This document shows, piece by piece, positions 64 to 27,115 of a stretch of 32,000 nt of DNA. A model generated the notes under the pieces. The model had not been told where the DNA came from. It made no database searches and saw only the letters and a list, made by a program, of their open reading frames with translations. Both the position numbers and the translations under genes were made by a program. The stretch comes from Promethearchaeota archaeon (GTDB taxonomy: Archaea > Asgardarchaeota > Hermodarchaeia > Hermodarchaeales > Hermodarchaeaceae). The stretch is from NCBI GenBank assembly GCA_048938295.1, contig JBHLMI010000004.1:90001-122000 (forward strand), given 5' to 3'. How positions within the stretch are numbered: position 1 is the stretch's first letter; each line of letters begins with the position of its first letter.

Positions 64-792
64 TCACACCTCAATAGAGATTTTCAGACCATCAACGGTG
101 TAAGGGTACGATTCATATGTTTTGGGATTGTATCGCCCACCCGCTTTTTTAACACGTATCAGCCGTTGATTATTTTCTCGATTCAGTTCAACAACAATCT
201 GAGTGGTGTGTTCAATTGCTGCAAGGAACTCTTTATTATGAGCGTGTCTATTGATCGTCCAATAGGCCAATGTCTTGTATGCGTATAGTGCGGGGCAGAT
301 ATGTCCAAAAAGGCTCCGAGCATTCTCCTGCCCCCACAAGATTTCCATTGCTGTGAGACTATTTATCACAAGGCGGGTTTCATCACCGATAAACTCCCTT
401 TCGATGCGTCCAAAAAAGTGGTGAAACCTTTCAACTTCTCGTGACATGGGGACTTTGCGAATCCAAGATGGAGATTTGTCGTAAAAATCAGTAAAAACTA
501 GTTCCCCGCGACCTCCTGATTCTGAAAAACAATCTAATACTAAGAGATGGTTCTCCCAACCAGAAGGAAGGGAACTAATTAAGGGTTTTAGAAATAGTAA
601 CAAAGCTTGTGGCGGATATATGAAGTCCAGATAGATTACTTGCTTCTTTTCTTCAATTCCTTGTCGTAAGAAGTTTTGTAGGAATTCGTTGACGAAGGTT
701 CCGGTTTCATATTCCCAAACGACGTTTTCTCCAAGGATAAGTCCTTCACCAAGAATTTCATCGAATTTTGGAATGCCTGTTGAACTACGCAT
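64..792 (-). CDS. KaiC/RAD55-family ATPase-like protein, probably catalytically inactive
   Basis: N-terminus STGIPKFDEILGEGL matches the KaiC/RAD55 start motif. The Walker A region reads EYETGTFVNEF (no GKT/S) and Walker B reads LVINS (N for D). TATA-like TTTATATT on the minus strand at 814-821. Confidence 0.75.
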   Translation of the reverse strand: MRSSTGIPKFDEILGEGLILGENVVWEYETGTFVNEFLQNFLRQGIEEKKQVIYLDFIYPPQALLLFLKPLISSLPSGWENHLLVLDCFSESGGRGELVFTDFYDKSPSWIRKVPMSREVERFHHFFGRIEREFIGDETRLVINSLTAMEILWGQENARSLFGHICPALYAYKTLAYWTINRHAHNKEFLAAIEHTTQIVVELNRENNQRLIRVKKAGGRYNPKTYESYPYTVDGLKISIEV

Positions 793-813
793 GAGTTCTC
801 AACACATTCAATG

Positions 814-821
814 AATATAAA
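814..821 (-). promoter_or_regulatory. TATA box of the RAD55-like gene (probably leaderless transcript)
   Basis: TTTATATT on the minus strand, 22-29 nt upstream of the ATG at 792. Confidence 0.55.
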
Positions 822-851
822 CCGTGAATTAAATGTTTGATTGTTGTTTGA

Positions 852-897
852 TGTACATCCATGTACAAAGTGAACATAAGCTTTGAATAGTTGAACA
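852..897. promoter_or_regulatory. Putative operator array TG(T/A)ACA x4 upstream of gdh
   Basis: TGTACA 852-857, TGTACA 862-867, TGAACA 871-876, TGAACA 892-897. The last three share the 9/21 spacing seen at 2756-2791. Confidence 0.6.
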
Positions 898-927
898 CTA
901 TATTCTAACTTAACCAGGTGAAGTCAC

Positions 928-2706
928 ATGCTTAACCTGGTTGAATTAACACCAATTGAATTGGGCTTGCAGAAGTTAATGGTCGACTTCTTCGCTGATA
1001 AGCCCGAGTATACAGCCGGACTGGATCGATTTACATCCGCTCATTATGCCTTAATGACGGCATTATCTGAAAATTACAAGGTTCCCTTTGCGACAACATC
1101 AATGGTTTTCGAACAACTTGCCATGAAGATTCGTCGGGCTGAATATGTGAATGTTGAATGTCCTGATGAGTCATTAGGAAATGGTTGCCTAACCCGTCAA
1201 GAACTTCAAATTCTGGGTGCCATGTTTGATTATTTTGCTGAACAACCCTCACATGCTGAGGCCAGCCTTCTTACAAATCGTCGTGAAGTCTTCATAGATT
1301 ACTTCAAATGGATTCACGGTGGCAATATTGAAGAAATCTCGGTCTGCTGCGGCCAAGTGATTGATCGATTACAGAGCGCAGTTTCTGCCACAATTCAAAC
1401 CCTTGATTCAGTGACACCCACTCCTAATCCATATGAAGCGGCTCTTGAGCAACTGGATCTCGCTGCCGAAAAATTGGGTTTAGACCCAGCCACTCATGAG
1501 GTTTTGCGTCATCCACAGAGAATTCTCATCGTAAATATTCCAGTTCACATGGACGATGGAACAGTTCGTGTTTTCACTGGATATCGTTCCCAGTACAATG
1601 ATGCACTGGGACCTACGAAAGGGGGGATTCGATATCATCCTGATACAACACTCGATGAAGTGATTGCCTTATCGGCGTGGATGACCTTCAAAACTGCTGT
1701 CGTGGGCTTACCTCTGGGTGGCGGTAAAGGCGGGATACGGTGTAATCCCAAAGAAATGTCATTGGGCGAGCTTGAACGTTTAACCCGGGGATATACCAGA
1801 GAACTGGTTCGATTTATCGGCCCACAGACAGACGTCCCTGCCCCTGACGTGTATACGGATGCACAGATAATGACATGGATAATGGACGAATATGCTGAAT
1901 GCACAGGTCTTTATTGTCCGGGTGTGGTTACAGGAAAACCTGTGGGGATTGGTGGCTCGAAAGGTCGAGAGGAAGCAACCTCACTAGGATTAGTCTTCAC
2001 AGTGATTGAAGCAGTTCAAGAACTGGGAATCCCCCTTAACGAGACCCGAGTAGTTGTCCAAGGTTTTGGAAACGTTGGCTTTAACGCGGCTCAAATTCTA
2101 AATGAGCGAGGCTGTAAAATTATTGCTGTTTCTGATTCTCAGGGAGGAATATTCAATTCCGACGGGCTAGACCCTGAGCAGGTGAAAGAACACAAGAAAC
2201 TGTCCGGTTCAGTGATTGGCTACAAAGACGCTATTCCGATCAGTAATCATGATATTTTGGAACTTGATTGTGATATCCTGATTCCAGCTGCTTTAGAAAA
2301 CGTCATTACGGCTGAAAACGCCTCTAGAATCAAAGCGAAGATTATTGCTGAGGGAGCAAATGGCCCCACAACGCCTGAAGCCGATGTAATCCTACACCAA
2401 CAGAACGTCTTCTTAATCCCTGATATTCTTGCTAATGCTGGAGGCGTTACAGTCAGCTACTTCGAAATGGTCCAGAATCAAATCAATTACTTCTGGACTA
2501 TAGAAGAAGTTCATAGCAAGCTCAAACAAATCATGCAAACTGCATTTCACGATGTGCAGGTGCTTTCAAAGGAACATGATGTTCCCATGCGTATTGCCGC
2601 CTATATGCTTGCCTTGAGCCGTATCAGCTATGCAATGCAGATGAGAAAACGTTCATCTACTAAAGAACGTCTTACACAGCCTAAACAAAGAATCTTGAAA
2701 ACCTAA
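928..2706 (+). CDS. gdhA: Glu/Leu/Phe/Val dehydrogenase (glutamate dehydrogenase) with ~165-aa N-terminal extension
   Basis: Core from about residue 166: TKGGIRYHP, MTFK, GGGKGG, VPAPD, QGFGNVG (Rossmann), EGANGP, ANAGGVTVSYFE. The glutamate-binding lysines are retained. Confidence 0.93.
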   Translation: MLNLVELTPIELGLQKLMVDFFADKPEYTAGLDRFTSAHYALMTALSENYKVPFATTSMVFEQLAMKIRRAEYVNVECPDESLGNGCLTRQELQILGAMFDYFAEQPSHAEASLLTNRREVFIDYFKWIHGGNIEEISVCCGQVIDRLQSAVSATIQTLDSVTPTPNPYEAALEQLDLAAEKLGLDPATHEVLRHPQRILIVNIPVHMDDGTVRVFTGYRSQYNDALGPTKGGIRYHPDTTLDEVIALSAWMTFKTAVVGLPLGGGKGGIRCNPKEMSLGELERLTRGYTRELVRFIGPQTDVPAPDVYTDAQIMTWIMDEYAECTGLYCPGVVTGKPVGIGGSKGREEATSLGLVFTVIEAVQELGIPLNETRVVVQGFGNVGFNAAQILNERGCKIIAVSDSQGGIFNSDGLDPEQVKEHKKLSGSVIGYKDAIPISNHDILELDCDILIPAALENVITAENASRIKAKIIAEGANGPTTPEADVILHQQNVFLIPDILANAGGVTVSYFEMVQNQINYFWTIEEVHSKLKQIMQTAFHDVQVLSKEHDVPMRIAAYMLALSRISYAMQMRKRSSTKERLTQPKQRILKT

Positions 2707-2743
2707 AAGGCAGTCAATCACTGCCTTTATCTTTCTTTTTTTT
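2706..2743 (+). terminator. Hairpin plus T-tract terminator after gdhA
   Basis: AAAGGCAGT-caatc-ACTGCCTTT perfect 9-bp stem, followed by atctttctttttttt. Confidence 0.75.
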
Positions 2744-2755
2744 CTGATTCCATGG

Positions 2756-2791
2756 TGTACATAATGTACAAGATTAATAAACGAGTGTACA
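2756..2791. promoter_or_regulatory. Putative operator array TGTACA x3 flanking the TATA box of the RHH regulator gene
   Basis: TGTACA at 2756, 2765 and 2786, with the TATA-like ATTAATAA (2773-2780) between boxes 2 and 3. Confidence 0.65.
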
Positions 2792-2815
2792 CCGATTGAA
2801 ATTGAGGGAACATCG

Positions 2816-4747
2816 TTGTCGGTGCATATCCACACAACCATCCCCAAAAAAACTGGAGCAATTTTAGATGAATTAGCAGGAACGTATGGGACTAAAAGTC
2901 GTGTTATTGAAACGGCTTTGGAGACGTTACTACGCGTTGATAAGGTAGGGTCCTGCGATGATTGCCAATTAAAGGCCCAAATCGAAGAAGAGATCAAACT
3001 CCGTGAATCCATAGAGCTAGCCTCGATTCGTCGAGACTTGCTGGATGAGCTTCTAAAAGTTGCACTAGCAGACAAAACATTTGAAGAATTCATTCAATGG
3101 CAACAAAATGAGGTACAGAATACAATAGAACTAATTCAGAATACAATCCATTGGAAACCCCCCACCCAATTTCATGAATTTCTTGCAGTGATTGACCAAA
3201 TTAGTAGGACAACAAAGGCGTTTGAAATTGCTTCTCACCGCGAAACCGATAACACCATCGTGTTACGCCCCTTGGTCTTTCTTAGATTACCCCAATTGGT
3301 TGCTTTACAACTCACGATTATACTTGAAGGAATTGGCAGTCATTTTGATCTTCGAATTATGCGTAAAGAAATCATTATCAAAATGCTTCGAAGAGATTTA
3401 TCAACTATACGACACACTGACCCCATGCAACTCGTTCTTCAAAGCCTGCAGGAGAAGTTAACCACCATTCGACCATTAATCTTTAAGGAACAACTTGCGC
3501 TAGTTGGACCAGCATTCTTGAAATGGGCGACGAAGAACCTCGAAGACTCTGTTACGGATTTGGGAACAGCCATAGAAGATATCCAGTTATTTTTGAAACC
3601 CACTGAACTATCTGATGTACCCCAAGAATTCATGCAAGGATTACTCGAAGCTGTTCAAGGAATGAATTGGATTTCGCAATACAAAATTAAAACAGAATCC
3701 AACAATCAATGCCACATCACCTTTCAAGCAACCTCACCTCCCATCGCAAATATCACTACAGTAAGCCTTGCCATAATTTTAGCAACTCGTGGATGGAAAC
3801 TCATCCGGCACTCAACTGAATACAATAATGGCTCACTAATCGTCGAATTAGCAGGAGAAGGGTCTCAGAAAATTTTAGACCAACTGAGTGATTTGAATCT
3901 TTATGGTGTGGTAAATGAACAGTTCCTTGATTCCATTCCAGTCCCCCGGGAATTATACGAAACCTTTGCTATTAAAATATATGACAGTGATCGGCGACGA
4001 TTTGAAGAAATCTATAGAAACATGGGCTTCCGAGTCGCAAATGCAATTCGTATGCTGAGCAACAATGATGATTCGCGCACACTGCAACTCATTCAAATGT
4101 TTATCGAAAAGAACGTTCATCAATCTCAACCCAATGCTGACGTTCGCTTTGTTGATGATGAAAATTTCTCTATTGTCTTCAAGAAAATGAATGTGGTGAT
4201 ATTAGCCAGCCAACGATTAATCATTGGAGCGATGCTTGAAGCACTGGGGTATCAGGTCACATTCACAGAGTTTCAAAACCTACTGAATGTTGTGATGAAG
4301 AAAATTGACAAGCCCTTTCTGAGCCCCCTTCATCGAAGAGAAGTCGTTCAGATGGTGAGTGACGCTATTGCCGCGGATTCAGCGAAAAACGCCCTTAACC
4401 AAGTAAAACCGACCTTAGATGATCTGTTCCCCCTGGAATACCCCTGGACGATTCATGAAATTGGAGATCGGCTCCTAGAAATGTATCGTGAGTTGGGAAT
4501 ACAGGTAGAAGTCGAGTACTTCGAAGGCGGATTTACCCTCAAATATCGCACATGCCCTTATTACAAACTAGTGAAGAATGATCAAAAGACTTGGCTCTGT
4601 ACCTTCCGTAAAAAAGCCATCGAGTACATTCTATCACGAGTTACAAAGACCGGAAAAGGACGGATTAGGGTAATTAAATCGCTTATCCAAGACGGCACAC
4701 ATCCTTGCGAATATGCAGTTTTCCTAGAGGAATTTCTAGCAACATAA
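2816..4747 (+). CDS. Putative one-component regulator: N-terminal ribbon-helix-helix, CxxC, tandem V4R/methanogen-output-like domains
   Basis: HIHTTI-PKKTGAILDELAG-TYG-TKSRVIETALETL fits the RHH strand-helix-helix pattern, followed by SCDDC. The C-terminal TCPYY..LC..HPCEY Cys triad is V4R/MetOD-like. TTG start with GAGGGA upstream. Confidence 0.6.
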   Translation: MSVHIHTTIPKKTGAILDELAGTYGTKSRVIETALETLLRVDKVGSCDDCQLKAQIEEEIKLRESIELASIRRDLLDELLKVALADKTFEEFIQWQQNEVQNTIELIQNTIHWKPPTQFHEFLAVIDQISRTTKAFEIASHRETDNTIVLRPLVFLRLPQLVALQLTIILEGIGSHFDLRIMRKEIIIKMLRRDLSTIRHTDPMQLVLQSLQEKLTTIRPLIFKEQLALVGPAFLKWATKNLEDSVTDLGTAIEDIQLFLKPTELSDVPQEFMQGLLEAVQGMNWISQYKIKTESNNQCHITFQATSPPIANITTVSLAIILATRGWKLIRHSTEYNNGSLIVELAGEGSQKILDQLSDLNLYGVVNEQFLDSIPVPRELYETFAIKIYDSDRRRFEEIYRNMGFRVANAIRMLSNNDDSRTLQLIQMFIEKNVHQSQPNADVRFVDDENFSIVFKKMNVVILASQRLIIGAMLEALGYQVTFTEFQNLLNVVMKKIDKPFLSPLHRREVVQMVSDAIAADSAKNALNQVKPTLDDLFPLEYPWTIHEIGDRLLEMYRELGIQVEVEYFEGGFTLKYRTCPYYKLVKNDQKTWLCTFRKKAIEYILSRVTKTGKGRIRVIKSLIQDGTHPCEYAVFLEEFLAT

Positions 4748-4849
4748 TTGGAGAAGAGAAAGCATTGTGTTTTAAATTCAATTGTATAAACAAGGCCTGT
4801 ATAACCTTGGGAGGGTTTCATAGACTGAAGGAATTAAGGAGGATTTGTA

Positions 4850-7663
4850 TTGGTAACAACCAATTTGGATCACATATTTAATCCTAAGAATATTGCCGTC
4901 ATTGGAGCTAGCGAAGAGGAGGGATCAGTGGGACATATTCTGATGCGCAATTTGGCGATGAATGGATTTGGTGAAAAGGTCTTTCCTGTGAATATTCGTC
5001 GCACAGAAGTAATGGGCATTAAGGCTTATCCGACGGTAGGAGAAATCTCACAGCCTATTGACTTAGCGATCATTGCGACTCCAGCAAAAACTGTGCCCGA
5101 GATTGTTGAAGAATGTGGAAAAAAAGGAATTAGGGGAATAATAATCATCTCAGCTGGGTTCAAGGAAATTGGCTCTGAGGGACTTGCACTCGAGAAGGAA
5201 TTAATTGAGTTAAAAAAGAAGTACAATCTTCGAATAATCGGACCCAACTGTTTTGGTATTATTCGTCCGAGTATCCAATTAAATGCAACCTTTGCAGAAG
5301 CGATGCCAAAGGCTGGGAATATTGCATTCATCTCTCAGAGTGGAGCCTTAGGTTCAGCTATCATTGATTGGGCACTTGGTCAAAATCTGGGATTCAGTAA
5401 TTTTGTTTCAGTTGGTTCGATGATTGATGTGGATTTTGGGGATTTAATCGATTATTTTGGAACTGATCCCCAAACGCGAAGTATAATCCTGTACATCGAG
5501 GGCATATCCGATGCGAGGAAGTTTATGAGCGCTGCCCGTCACTTTGCGAAAACTAAACCCATTATTGTGGTAAAAGCAGGTCGGTTTAGCGAAAGTGCCC
5601 AGGCAGCTGCCTCACACACCGGCTCACTGACAGGGTCAGATCTGGTTTACGATGCAGCTTTCAAACGGGCAGGTATTGTACGTATCGAAGAAATTTCGGA
5701 TCTATTTAATGCGGCAGAAACATTGGGAATGCAACCATTACCAGAAGGCCCACGTTTAGCAATCGTCACAAATGCGGGGGGCCCAGGCGTGATGGCAGCA
5801 GATGCTTTACTGCAAAAGAGAGGAAAACTTGCCCAACTATCAGAAACCACAATAAAAAAATTGAACAAGATTCTGCCACCATTTTGGAGCCAAGGAAATC
5901 CTATCGATATTTTAGGCGACGCCGATGCCCAACGCTACCGCGAAGCGATGAGTATATGCCTAGCTGATAAAAACGTTGATGGAATCCTGCTTATTTACAC
6001 CCCACAAGCGATTGCTGCCGCTGAAACTATTGCACAGAATATCGTTTCAGCTTGTGACGCCCGCGGAGGATGTGAAAAAACCATATTGACCTCATTTATG
6101 GGCGGAAATAAAGTCGAAAAAGCTAACCAGATTTTCACAGAAAACGGATACCCTACATATTGGACTCCCGAACACGCTGTTGCAACTTACATGTATATGT
6201 ACCAATACAAACGAAATCTTGAGTTATTATATGAAACTCCTGAAGAACTCCCCATTGAGAGCGCGCCTCCAAAACGTCCCGTTATGGTGCTTTTACGAAA
6301 TGCAGCTAAGGAGAAGCGTGAAATCCTTACTGAAGTGGAAGCCAAAAAGCTTCTAGAATTTTATAATATTCCTGTGGTAAAAACCCGAATCGCGAAATCA
6401 GTGGATGAAGCCGCTGCAGCTGCAGCCACAATAGGATATCCGGTCGTCTTGAAGATTTACTCACCCGATATCACACACAAATCTGATGCCGGTGGAGTAA
6501 AACTCAATCTACGTGATGATAACGAAGTGCGCAATGCTTACAATCTCATTATCGAAGCAGCTAAAGCTTACAAACCAAAGGCTAAGATTCAAGGCGTGAC
6601 GGTCCAGGAAATGATTGAACCCACAGGAACGGAAGTTATTCTGGGCGCAAACCGCGACCCTCTCTTTGGACCCGTCATACTCTTTGGAATGGGAGGCGTA
6701 GGCGTCGAATTTTTCCATGATGTATCACTTGGTTTTCCTCCTCTCAATCAAACTCTTGCACGACGAATCATGGAAGACACCCGAGTATATGAGGTTCTCG
6801 TCAAAGGACACCGACAGACCATCCCGGCCAATCTCAAATTATTAGAAGAACTCATAGTTCGCTTCTCTCAAATGATTGTCGATTTTCCCGAAATCAAAGA
6901 GATAGACATCAATCCACTTCTTGTCGATGACAAACAAGCCATTGCATTAGATGCTCGCGTCGTACTCGATTTATCACGAATAGAAAAAAAATCAGACACC
7001 CCACAGGAACTAATAATAAGTCCTTATCCAAAACGGTATGAACAGATTTGGCGCATGCGAGATGGACGTACCGTCTTATTCCGCCCAATCAAGCCTGAAG
7101 ACGAACCACTTTGGTTAGAAATGTTTCAAAACTTTTCTGAAGAATCGATTCGCTACCGGTTTTTTCAAATCATTAAAGATACGCCCCACGAAGTTAGGAT
7201 ACGATACACAAATATCGATTATGACCGGGAAATCGCCATCGTCCCCATATTACACGAAAAAGGAAAAGATAGAATCTTAGGTGTGGTACGATTAATAGAA
7301 GAACCAGATAGAAAACGGGGAGAAATCGCCTTTATCATTGCTGATCCATGGCAAGGTCTTGGACTCGGCTCCAAGTTAATTGACTTTATGATTGAAATCG
7401 CAATTGACAGAGGATTGGAAGAAATCTATGGAATGATGCTCCCCGATAATTATCGAGCACATAAAATAATGGAAAAAATGGGATTTGCGCTCGAACGGAC
7501 AAAAGATGGGCTGGTCAAAGCCACACTCGATTTAATGGAAGAAAGACGCTGGCGAGCACCACGAGAATTTCGCCCCAGCTCTGATGCTGCAATTGAAGTG
7601 GAAGAACCGAAGAAGCATGTTCAAGCATCAAAGGAACGAAGGAAAAAAGCCAAAAAGTCCTGA
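4850..7663 (+). CDS. ADP-forming acetate/acyl-CoA ligase (alpha+beta) fused to a C-terminal GNAT acetyltransferase (Pat/PatZ-type architecture)
   Basis: CoA-binding AVIGAS, IGPNCFG, SQSGA, ASHTGS (catalytic His), NAGGPG, ATP-grasp THKSDAGGV, DINPL; GNAT with GEIAFIIADPWQGLGLG. SD AAGGAGGA at 4836-4843, TTG start. Confidence 0.9.
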   Translation: MVTTNLDHIFNPKNIAVIGASEEEGSVGHILMRNLAMNGFGEKVFPVNIRRTEVMGIKAYPTVGEISQPIDLAIIATPAKTVPEIVEECGKKGIRGIIIISAGFKEIGSEGLALEKELIELKKKYNLRIIGPNCFGIIRPSIQLNATFAEAMPKAGNIAFISQSGALGSAIIDWALGQNLGFSNFVSVGSMIDVDFGDLIDYFGTDPQTRSIILYIEGISDARKFMSAARHFAKTKPIIVVKAGRFSESAQAAASHTGSLTGSDLVYDAAFKRAGIVRIEEISDLFNAAETLGMQPLPEGPRLAIVTNAGGPGVMAADALLQKRGKLAQLSETTIKKLNKILPPFWSQGNPIDILGDADAQRYREAMSICLADKNVDGILLIYTPQAIAAAETIAQNIVSACDARGGCEKTILTSFMGGNKVEKANQIFTENGYPTYWTPEHAVATYMYMYQYKRNLELLYETPEELPIESAPPKRPVMVLLRNAAKEKREILTEVEAKKLLEFYNIPVVKTRIAKSVDEAAAAAATIGYPVVLKIYSPDITHKSDAGGVKLNLRDDNEVRNAYNLIIEAAKAYKPKAKIQGVTVQEMIEPTGTEVILGANRDPLFGPVILFGMGGVGVEFFHDVSLGFPPLNQTLARRIMEDTRVYEVLVKGHRQTIPANLKLLEELIVRFSQMIVDFPEIKEIDINPLLVDDKQAIALDARVVLDLSRIEKKSDTPQELIISPYPKRYEQIWRMRDGRTVLFRPIKPEDEPLWLEMFQNFSEESIRYRFFQIIKDTPHEVRIRYTNIDYDREIAIVPILHEKGKDRILGVVRLIEEPDRKRGEIAFIIADPWQGLGLGSKLIDFMIEIAIDRGLEEIYGMMLPDNYRAHKIMEKMGFALERTKDGLVKATLDLMEERRWRAPREFRPSSDAAIEVEEPKKHVQASKERRKKAKKS

Positions 7664-25666: not shown

Positions 25667-26469
25667 TGATTGATCGCCGAGTGGCAGATTTTTTCCAATA
25701 TTGGCGTCAGCAATATCAATGGCCATTAAGACGAACAAGAGTCAATACCGAAAAGAAGATTCAAGAGTTCAAAGAAAACGCCCAGTTAGCAGTAGCATCA
25801 GGGAAGGACGAGAGATTAGCCAATACATTGATTCAGATTCACCGTTGGAAGACTCGCAATCAAGCTGGCATAACCGATGATTATGCCCGCCAGTTGGACA
25901 AAGCACCGAAACGCCTTAGAGAACTCCAGAAAGAACTACCCCTCACACTCAAAACACCAAATGAGATACTAAAAAAAGCTCTTGACTTATTGCGATTCTC
26001 CGATTGCAATCTACCAGTGTGTACAGCACAACTAAGCTTCCTCTCAGATCGGGTATTCCCAATCCTAGACCGCTTCTTAGCTCAATTCTTTAGCCGAAAA
26101 GTTCATCCCATGATTCTCAAATGGGCTGATTTTGACATTCAAAACGTTTTCGAAACTCTTGGCATAATCGACTTTGCACTCGAAGATGACGGACGAGGAA
26201 AAGGAGTACCCAGAATGGCAGTGTATACCGAAAAATTCTATCGCTATAATCGGAACCTGTTTGTAGACGAACTTATCCCACGGCTCCAAAATTTAGCAAG
26301 ACAACTGAGTGAAGCAGATATAACGTATGAAGGCATCGATCGGAACTTACACTATTTCACAAGTGTTGACCTACAAATGGCGATTTTTATCTTCGGCAAA
26401 AAGAATCCGCGACTATTCAGGCAGTTTTACAAAGTTCCTCCAATCCCAAGTCTGCCACCGCATCTTTAG
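25667..26469 (+). CDS. Hypothetical protein, possible HhH-type DNA glycosylase-like fold
   Basis: I..WK.R motif, LPVCTAQLSF..DRVFPILDR resembling the (G)xPTASAIL..P..YPIxD signature, and VDLQMAIF. ATG 25667 preferred. Confidence 0.45.
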
Positions 26470-26527
26470 CAAATTAAACAACTCAAATGCTAAAAAGGTA
26501 CATATTATCGATGGTGGAAGCAAAAAG

Positions 26528-27115
26528 ATGGAACGAATTGAAAGATATCGGCAACTAGCGAAATTCTCGCACTCAGGAGCAGTGAATCGACGCTATTTTG
26601 CTACCAATGCTTTTGATGGCACCTTAACAATTGTAGGTTTAATACTTGGAAGCTATTTTGCGGTCATACTCAATCCAATTGCTGTAGTGAGAGCAGGAAT
26701 CGGTGCTTGTATAGCCATGATGTTTTCAGGGTTTGCTGGAACCCTTTTTGCAGAGCGACTTGTTCAACGTGAACAGATACAGGAACTAGAAAAAGCTATG
26801 CTTCGTAAACTCGATGAATCGCTTCCCAGTAAAGCATCCACCTTTGTGATTATCTCTTCCGCATTAGTAGATGGAATTGCTCCACTTCTTACAGGGCTAT
26901 TCTGTCTTATTCCAATATTTGCTGCGGCCTTGGGATTAATAGTATGGAATCTAGCGGTATTCGTATCTTGTATTATTGGATTAACTATACTTTTCACTTT
27001 AGGGTTCTATATCGGAAAAGTTGCCCGAATGAATCCACTTGTTCAAGGTGTTCAAACACTTTTCATCGGGATTGGAACAGTAATTGCCATTATTCTAATA
27101 CAACTCGCATTATAG
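26528..27115 (+). CDS. VIT1/CCC1-family transporter (second paralog)
   Basis: RRYFATNAFDGTLT, GTLFAER, DGIAP, multiple TM helices. Start at ATG 26528. Confidence 0.85.
   Translation: MERIERYRQLAKFSHSGAVNRRYFATNAFDGTLTIVGLILGSYFAVILNPIAVVRAGIGACIAMMFSGFAGTLFAERLVQREQIQELEKAMLRKLDESLPSKASTFVIISSALVDGIAPLLTGLFCLIPIFAAALGLIVWNLAVFVSCIIGLTILFTLGFYIGKVARMNPLVQGVQTLFIGIGTVIAIILIQLAL

Follow-up and report, generated by a model that had tools for sequence, protein, structure and literature searches.

Ribbon-helix-helix (RHH) repressors such as Arc, MetJ, CopG and omega bind DNA as dimers that occupy tandem short subsites, approximately one helical turn apart, in a cooperative manner; in NikR the RHH heads are mounted on a regulatory body, and its two DNA-reading dimers are positioned approximately two helical turns apart. 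The site of a further protein of this fold, PutA, is reportedly GTTGCA, and a PutA RHH dimer is said to read a hexamer. In Escherichia coli and Salmonella, PutA carries its RHH domain at the N-terminus of a very large protein and acts as an autogenous repressor from a divergent control region (PMC5293562). In archaea, the one-component regulator MsvR combines a DNA-binding head with a V4R-type sensor containing three conserved cysteines, and recognizes two or three boxes that precede its own gene, in a stretch common to this gene and a divergently transcribed neighbour; boxes that overlap the B recognition element (BRE) and TATA box prevent binding of TATA-binding protein (TBP) and transcription factor B (TFB), and the regulator represses its own gene in a redox-dependent manner (PMC3729527). 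The subject of this report is a three-gene cassette found within a 32,000-nucleotide stretch (hereafter ‘the window’) of a Promethearchaeota archaeon genome (GenBank assembly GCA_048938295.1, contig JBHLMI010000004.1, positions 90,001 to 122,000 of the forward strand), in which a long glutamate dehydrogenase (GDH) gene, gdh, and the adjacent gene for a 643-residue protein with an RHH-like head are each preceded by an array of TG(T/A)ACA boxes. The reading that we prefer, and to which we lend slightly more belief than doubt, is that these boxes are operators of the adjacent RHH/V4R-like regulator, which would repress both its own gene and gdh through promoter occlusion.

While the resemblance to MsvR extends from the domain plan and the placement of boxes to putative autoregulation, MsvR is restricted to methanogens, comprises approximately 250 residues with a non-RHH DNA-binding domain and one V4R domain, and controls oxidative-stress genes; the cassette protein, in contrast, has an RHH-like head and four V4R-like modules in 643 residues, is accompanied by a different box sequence, and resides in a gdh cassette of Asgard and Bathyarchaeia hosts. 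By analogy, it is a regulator that would work like MsvR, but it is not a member of the MsvR family. With PutA it would share the use of one RHH dimer per 6-bp site, the presence of several sites per region and a link to glutamate metabolism, and residues 4-44 of its model superpose on the PutA52-operator complex (PDB 2rbf; 1.4 Å over 41 residues). PutA differs in that its body consists of proline dehydrogenase and P5C dehydrogenase enzymes (Pfam found neither domain in the regulator), that its promoter is bacterial, and that its sites, instead of being in phase about a TATA box, are distributed over approximately 420 bp. The two-turn dimer spacing of NikR is similar to the invariant 20-21 bp of the regulator's box pairs, but NikR relies upon an ACT-like nickel-binding tetramerisation domain and inverted half-sites, and no sequence or fold link between NikR and the regulator body was found. 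Arc and RHH antitoxins are among the top fold matches of the regulator head, whereas Arc, MetJ, CopG and omega are proteins of 45-100 residues from bacteria, phages and plasmids that act at bacterial promoters and have no fused sensor. The fusion of four V4R-like modules to an RHH head, as modelled, was not found described in the literature searched and would represent an undescribed regulator architecture.

To our knowledge, no pair of transcription factor and operator has been characterised in Asgard archaea or Bathyarchaeia, and a search of the literature for this cassette, for archaeal TGTACA operators and for RHH-V4R fusions found nothing specific. The present locus offers a cis element that is precisely defined in its hexamer sequence, number, spacing and promoter position, together with a specific candidate protein, and some 60 uncultivated archaea from two phyla preserve its box layout nearly unaltered; recombinant protein and 50-bp oligonucleotides suffice to test the candidate switch, and the hosts need not be cultivated. 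Its putative target, glutamate dehydrogenase, is the entry and exit point of amino-acid nitrogen in host lineages for which a diet of peptides and amino acids is assumed. With a strictly conserved layout in surroundings that have diverged throughout, these loci also constitute a clean natural data set on the positioning of archaeal regulators relative to BRE and TATA box.

Box arrays at two promoters

The genome that contains the window (2,519,385 bp in 66 contigs, 91.6% complete, 45.8% G+C) belongs to Hermodarchaeota, an Asgard group, and its cassette, which spans positions 64-4747, consists of a divergent KaiC-like gene, the long gdh and the gene for the 643-residue RHH protein. The features of the two promoters and of the genes that they precede are as follows, with counts taken from the loci described below.

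852-857, no strand: gdh-promoter box 1, TGTACA; TGTACA in 32 or TGTTCA in 22 of 54 loci
862-867, no strand: gdh-promoter box 2, TGTACA; +10 bp from box 1; TGTACA in 48/54 loci, TGAACA in 6/54
871-876, + strand: gdh-promoter box 3, TGAACA; +9 bp from box 2; TG-N-ACA, always in one orientation, in 54 loci
882-889, + strand: gdh TATA-like element, TTTGAATA; within the invariant 15-bp spacer between boxes 3 and 4; high information in 54 unique promoters
892-897, + strand: gdh-promoter box 4, TGAACA; +21 bp from box 3; TGAACA in 54/54 strict-pattern loci
928-2706, + strand: gdh, glutamate dehydrogenase gene, 592 aa, ATG start; Pfam ELFV_dehydrog and ELFV_dehydrog_N over residues 196-573
2756-2761, no strand: RHH-promoter box A, TGTACA; the least conserved, lying 9 or 21 bp before box B, or degenerate (CGTACA), in orthologs
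2765-2770, no strand: RHH-promoter box B, TGTACA; directly 5' of the TATA box, at the BRE position; invariant in 11/11 Hermodarchaeota promoters
2773-2780, + strand: putative TATA box of the RHH gene, ATTAATAA; A[GC]ATTAATAA invariant in 11/11 orthologs; predicted transcription start near 2803
2786-2791, no strand: RHH-promoter box C, TGTACA; +21 bp from box B; invariant in 11/11 Hermodarchaeota promoters
2816-4747, + strand: regulator gene, 643 aa, TTG start; RHH-like head, CxxC and four alpha/beta modules

An initial annotation, made from the letters of the window without database searches, had placed boxes at 852/862/871/892 and at 2756/2765/2786, and had noted that both arrays display a spacing of +9 and then +21 bp, the last two boxes being separated by an AT-rich, TATA-like element; all of the boxes were found at these places, and the A/T-rich elements are octamers at 882-889 and 2773-2780. 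The box at 852, which had been listed as an extra, is indeed present, but belongs, by its conservation, to an array of four (box starts at 0, 10, 19 and 40 bp). The pattern TGWACA-N3-TGWACA-N15-TGWACA occurs twice in the genome, both times here, as compared to approximately 0.0007 occurrences expected from hexamer densities and none of the reversed control pattern; chance is excluded as the origin of the arrays.

These two promoters appear to be the only ones so equipped. A relaxed scan of the genome (one mismatch, 20-21 bp spacing, A/T-rich spacer) returned 25 matches versus 19 in a reversed-genome control, and this two-box scan identified no further sites above background apart from the two promoters. 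Exact two-box scans of five genomes returned the cassette promoters plus noise at the level of the control, and neither the exact and one-mismatch scans of the window's genome nor the exact scans of four Bathyarchaeia genomes displayed an excess outside the cassette that would indicate a wider regulon. The genome-wide scan that had been proposed to define the regulon has therefore returned the two cassette promoters and nothing else above background.

Two further 9-bp TGWACA pairs in the window (26761-26775 and 27040-27054), which together with the two promoter pairs account for 4 of the 5 such pairs in the genome, lie within an open reading frame (26327-27115), and were rejected as sites in favor of chance or a coding repeat. 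A reading of the self-complementary TGTACA copies as RNA hairpins was likewise rejected, on the grounds that boxes lie upstream of the predicted TATA boxes, that TGAACA copies cannot pair mutually, and that no compensatory pattern is present.

The conservation of the arrays was determined with 80 loci fetched from species-representative genomes, mostly Bathyarchaeia, and numbered L024-L103. The gdh footprint was assembled from 58 intergenic regions between KaiC-like gene and gdh, and information content was calculated from the 54 unique sequences. The succession box-N4-box-N3-box-N15-box, with unchanged spacings, is found in 54 of the 58 promoters, and in each of the other four a single base departs from the pattern in one box. 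While the spacers themselves vary freely in sequence (37 different N4 and 13 different N3), the 15-bp spacer that holds the TATA-like element is invariant in length across 54 loci, and the information content, which approaches 2 bits in the hexamers and in the TATA-like core, falls to approximately zero in the short spacers and in both flanks. The TATA-like element of gdh is non-canonical in both phyla (TTTGAATA or TTTCTATA).

The regulator promoter displays more variation. All 11 Hermodarchaeota copies read TGTACA, A[GC]ATTAATAA, five bases and TGTACA, and the Bathyarchaeia subgroup nearest to Hermodarchaeota displays the same layout flanking the TATA box as in the window; nearly all Bathyarchaeia copies (about 60) instead contain TGTACA-N14/15-TGAACA, where a canonical TATA box follows immediately upon the second box. 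Of 71 regulator loci, nearly all have boxes 20-21 bp apart that contact or flank the TATA box, and the universal feature of this promoter is a pair of boxes approximately two helical turns apart that contacts the TATA box. Because the third box of the RHH promoter shifts or degenerates in relatives, the identical spacing of the two three-box arrays, which had been emphasized initially, holds within this genome and is in part specific to its lineage; only the 20-21-bp pair is universal. Throughout 675 kb of fetched loci, 117 box pairs at 20-21 bp were located in the 18.6 kb that make up the two promoters, and none in the remaining 657 kb. The arrays were thus retained in every orthologous cassette examined in Hermodarchaeota and Bathyarchaeia, and the loss of conservation that would have spoken against operators was not seen.

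An additional hexamer was noted in 16 of the 71 loci (L026, L029 and L030 among them, and the window not), in which the Ser-Val-His codons 2-4 of the regulator gene spell TGT(A/T)CA, at a distance of approximately 52 bp from the proximal box in Bathyarchaeia. Since the synonymous positions are free to vary, the coding sequence probably produces this hexamer by coincidence.

The boxes and the regulator also share their distribution. The cassette recurs in about 60 loci of Bathyarchaeia and Hermodarchaeota with constant gene order and orientation (the divergent KaiC-like gene, the long gdh matched from residue 1, and the regulator gene) at approximately 60% protein identity, and within the genus gdh lies directly 5' of the regulator gene in 10 of 10 orthologous loci of full length. 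The regulator has more than 300 full-length homologs of approximately 645 residues, which are 66-94% identical in close relatives and approximately 50% identical in Bathyarchaeia. Among 81 genomes of the phylum the regulator is confined to the window's own family, where it is present in 11 of 18 other genomes, as compared to none of 62 from other families; five genomes of the family that have no regulator (four of the window's genus and one of a sister genus, 78-88% complete) also returned no match to the long gdh. In a sample of 301 genomes of the Bathyarchaeia class, 11 have the long gdh. Two genomes, G357 and G315, encode a long GDH that is 58-59% identical, extension included, and in these neither the regulator nor the KaiC-like ortholog was found genome-wide, and no box is present in the 260 bp upstream of gdh. 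Every locus with the regulator thus has boxes, and the two long-gdh genomes without it have none. In the rearranged locus L085 (L115-L116, genome G120), gdh is divergent from the KaiC-like gene, which is followed by the regulator gene (41% identity); the array, with its third box degenerated to TTAACA, lies in the divergent gdh/KaiC-like region, and no boxes precede the regulator gene itself.

The Hermodarchaeota sequences make up one clade of the regulator tree, nested beside two small Bathyarchaeia groups, L032/L033 and L031/L034 (SH-aLRT 97-100). A single transfer of the cassette between the phyla, in either direction, is the simplest reading of this tree, the root of which is not established.

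The regulator protein

As modelled, the 643-residue protein consists of an RHH-like head (residues 1-44), a CxxC motif (47-50) and four alpha/beta modules of V4R/H-NOX/Bet3 type, although its open reading frame displays no match to Pfam or NCBIfam. An AlphaFold2 model of the whole protein, derived from 25 homologs (mean pLDDT 68), contains an extended N-terminus, helices at 11-24 and 27-43, a long helix after the CxxC motif and four helix-helix-hairpin-helix-hairpin repeats. A separate model of residues 1-75 (pLDDT 76.5) is extended at 1-10 and helical at 11-24 and 27-44, and therefore corresponds to a strand-helix-helix unit of approximately 45 residues. Both structure searches with this model were headed by RHH proteins (ParD, ParD2, Arc, AtaR, VapB, MazE, FitA and MatP); the matches included ParD (TM 0.68) and PutA52 on operator DNA (2rbf; Z 4.0, root-mean-square deviation 1.4 Å over 41 of 44 residues), with statistics that are not significant for a 45-residue domain. 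Some homologs of the regulator are labelled CopG or DinJ antitoxin by JGI. On the basis of these models, the N-terminus of the regulator is predicted to adopt a fold of RHH-like type, and no other DNA-binding domain was identified in the cassette. A search of a language-model atlas with the head gave no usable match (DUF5371, at 0.76, is a lead only). RHH domains dimerise through an intermolecular two-stranded beta-sheet; a prediction of residues 1-75 in two copies, which scored 0.28 against a mark of 0.32, counts neither way.

Across 25 sequences of 48-94% identity, residues H4, H6, T7 and T8 and the turn G25-T26-K27 are invariant. Polar residues on the strand, together with a glycine-containing turn before helix 2, make up a pattern of RHH type. 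The constancy of these residues, of which H4, H6, T7 and T8 lie on the putative DNA-reading strand, parallels that of the hexamer; because strand residues and boxes are both invariant throughout the family, their covariation is uninformative.

Weak matches of the body of the protein point to the group formed by MetOD1, V4R, H-NOX and ATC hydrolase. Its last module is matched by the Pfam family MetOD1 in 21 of 22 members (best E 5.6e-5), while the window's own protein, at E 0.02 and 15.4 bits, falls below the cut-off of 23.8 bits; the V4R model PF02830 does not match the regulator. Matches of the body in the PDB comprise Bet3/TRAPP and H-NOX proteins at E 0.03-0.1, with probabilities up to 1.0 (weak, and obtained with the model of pLDDT 68), and in the AlphaFold DB a ‘V4R domain protein’ at 6e-6 and clusters of ATC hydrolases. 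A relationship of MetOD1 to H-NOX, V4R and ATC hydrolase has been described, as has a three-cysteine cluster common to MetOD1 and V4R (PMC5847659), and V4R domains, which are related to Bet3, are thought to bind small hydrophobic ligands (PMC2253512). The last module of the regulator resembles this group in its three-cysteine cluster, given by the invariant residues C580, C595 and C631 and accompanied by the invariant H629; the three modules that precede it lack these cysteines. An invariant CxxC (window positions 2954-2965) follows directly upon the RHH-like head. It could form, together with the C-terminal cluster of cysteines and histidine, a metal or redox site that links the sensor to the head.

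Occlusion, activation and other readings of the boxes

If the two octamers function as TATA boxes, a role that the 882-889 element would take at gdh by virtue of its position, transcription is predicted to start near 912 and 2803, giving leaders of 13-16 nucleotides that contain Shine-Dalgarno sequences (AGGTGA at 916-921 and GAGGGA at 2804-2809, each 6-8 nucleotides ahead of its start codon). Under these predicted starts boxes 3 and B would lie at the expected BRE position, which box 3 reaches; box 4 would occupy approximately -20 to -15 and box C approximately -17 to -12.

In the reading that we prefer, the hexamers would serve as operator subsites of the protein encoded at 2816-4747, and each palindromic or near-palindromic hexamer would accept one RHH dimer, TGTACA being a perfect palindrome of a size readable by one such dimer. 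Spacings of 10, 9 and 21 bp, which correspond to about one and two helical turns, would place all subsites on one face of the DNA, and would thus permit cooperative binding by several dimers tied together, as an oligomer, by the large C-terminal body. Since boxes touch the TATA box, or lie on either side of it, at each of the two promoters, the protein, once bound, would most probably keep TBP, TFB and RNA polymerase away. The regulator's own gene and gdh would then be repressed, and the divergent KaiC-like gene perhaps modulated, until a signal at the V4R-like modules releases the protein; a redox or metal signal is one candidate, suggested by the cysteine cluster, and a small metabolite, for example of the glutamate node, is another. 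The regulon would be the cassette itself. That the array is the sensor's own control site is very probable, and the initial proposal of operators for the adjacent, autoregulated RHH protein is well supported by comparison (in conservation, confinement to the cassette promoters, absence where the regulator is absent, and the RHH-like N-terminus), with binding presumed from these patterns. Repression as the sign of control is probable by analogy, because MsvR boxes that overlap BRE and TATA box block TBP and TFB, and because of the position of the boxes.

Several observations weigh against this account. The structural matches of the RHH-like head have low Z-scores and non-significant E-values, which may be attributed to its length of only about 45 residues, and the head is unrecognised by Pfam, NCBIfam or PDB-sequence models; short divergent RHH domains are often missed by sequence models. 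In both box-less genomes the KaiC-like gene was lost along with the regulator, so that the co-occurrence is not specific to the RHH protein, and the two genomes possibly represent one evolutionary event; metagenome-derived genomes are, moreover, incomplete. The TATA-like element of gdh departs from the archaeal consensus (C or G at the fourth position), and three of the four gdh boxes lie upstream of it, an arrangement that would also suit activation. Finally, the operator function of the boxes and their positions relative to transcription starts are predictions.

The last of the promoter features lead to a serious alternative, one that we consider distinctly less likely though by no means far-fetched, in which the same protein binds the same boxes as an activator or dual regulator, activating gdh from boxes 1-3 upstream of a weak TATA element and repressing its own strong promoter. 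Activation is frequent among regulators of archaea that bind upstream of BRE and TATA box, such as Ptr2, SurR and TrmBL1, and this alternative gains as well from the contrast between the non-canonical element of gdh and the canonical A/T-rich TATA box of the regulator promoter, and from the location of both regulator-promoter boxes upstream of the TATA box in Bathyarchaeia. It is opposed by the placement of gdh box 4 and of box C between the TATA box and the predicted transcription start, and by that of the proximal upstream box at the BRE position, which in MsvR blocks TBP and TFB (PMC3729527).

A different protein might also be responsible, in that the boxes could be operators of another transcription factor encoded elsewhere, while the adjacent RHH protein has another target or role. 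The assignment of the head to the RHH fold by a model and weak structural matches, and the indirect argument for binding by the adjacent protein, leave room for such a factor; but in each genome scanned the boxes occur solely at the two promoters of the cassette, they appear to have moved with it between phyla, and they are absent where its regulator is absent. An unlinked factor with sites only here would be unparsimonious, as its gene must also have crossed between the phyla, and we regard this explanation as improbable. Least credible of all is that the hexamers are not regulator sites, but basal elements (BRE or proximal), a cluster that arose by chance, or a feature of a mobile cassette that relates to structure or recombination: one box does always abut the TATA box, in the place of a BRE, and the cassette appears to be horizontally transferred, but up to four copies in fixed helical phase reach 40 bp from the TATA box, the pair is missing from all other promoters, both in the 657 kb of flanking DNA and in five genomes, the gdh promoters of regulator-less genomes are entirely box-free, and chance would have supplied some 0.0007 arrays where two are observed.

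Other genes and features of the cassette

The remaining features of the cassette are the following.

64-792, - strand: KaiC/RecA-like gene, 242 aa; Pfam KaiC PF06745, E 2e-6; the first gene of the cassette
2709-2744, + strand: hairpin GGCAGT / ACTGCC followed by a T-run, 3' of gdh; terminator-like by sequence, separating the two transcription units

The KaiC-like protein, an ortholog of which is found at the equivalent place in 62 loci, does not contain a Walker A GKT/S motif in its translation; since the position of the P-loop reads EYETGTFV in place of GxxGxGKT/S, and is thus degenerate, the protein is probably not an ATPase. Its gene is always divergent from gdh, and was lost with the regulator in G357 and G315. 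It may act as a partner of the regulator or of the N-terminal extension of GDH. This extension, approximately 190 residues in length (window positions 928-1500) and without a Pfam or NCBIfam match, is matched from residue 1 in about 60 cassette copies from two phyla; its identity in Bathyarchaeia is 40-50%, and it is retained even in the two regulator-less genomes.

A bolder proposal, which we advance as speculation and consider doubtful as a whole, is that the cassette represents a self-contained, horizontally mobile control circuit of an undescribed kind, the operators of which move with it between archaeal phyla. From hexamers two turns apart, the RHH protein would grip the TATA box on both sides and hold the DNA straight, and would thereby exclude the bend induced by TBP. 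With its four V4R-like sensor modules it would also integrate a signal from redox state or a metabolite; the KaiC-like protein, as a catalytically dead partner, and the novel domain at the N-terminus of GDH possibly take part in this.

The hairpin and T-run 3' of gdh suggest a terminator between gdh and the regulator gene, because the GGCAG...CTGCC stem is conserved while the loop varies in Hermodarchaeota orthologs. In one soil metatranscriptome, three short contigs of a close relative, 93-96% alike, lie inside the gdh coding region only (these are assembled contigs, in which carry-over of DNA is possible).

Directly 3' of the cassette, at 4850-7663, lies a gene for a 937-residue fusion of ADP-forming acyl-CoA synthetase and GNAT acetyltransferase (a Pat-like architecture), whose linkage to the cassette is limited to Hermodarchaeota and whose promoter contains no conserved boxes. 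TGTATA variants at 4783/4798 in this acd promoter, which had been put forward initially as weaker sites, were discarded because no relatives but the two nearest retain them, six others being without them, and because the acd-GNAT gene is outside the cassette beyond Hermodarchaeota; the TGTATA at position 50, proposed in the same way, lies beyond the stop codon of the KaiC-like gene and was likewise discarded.

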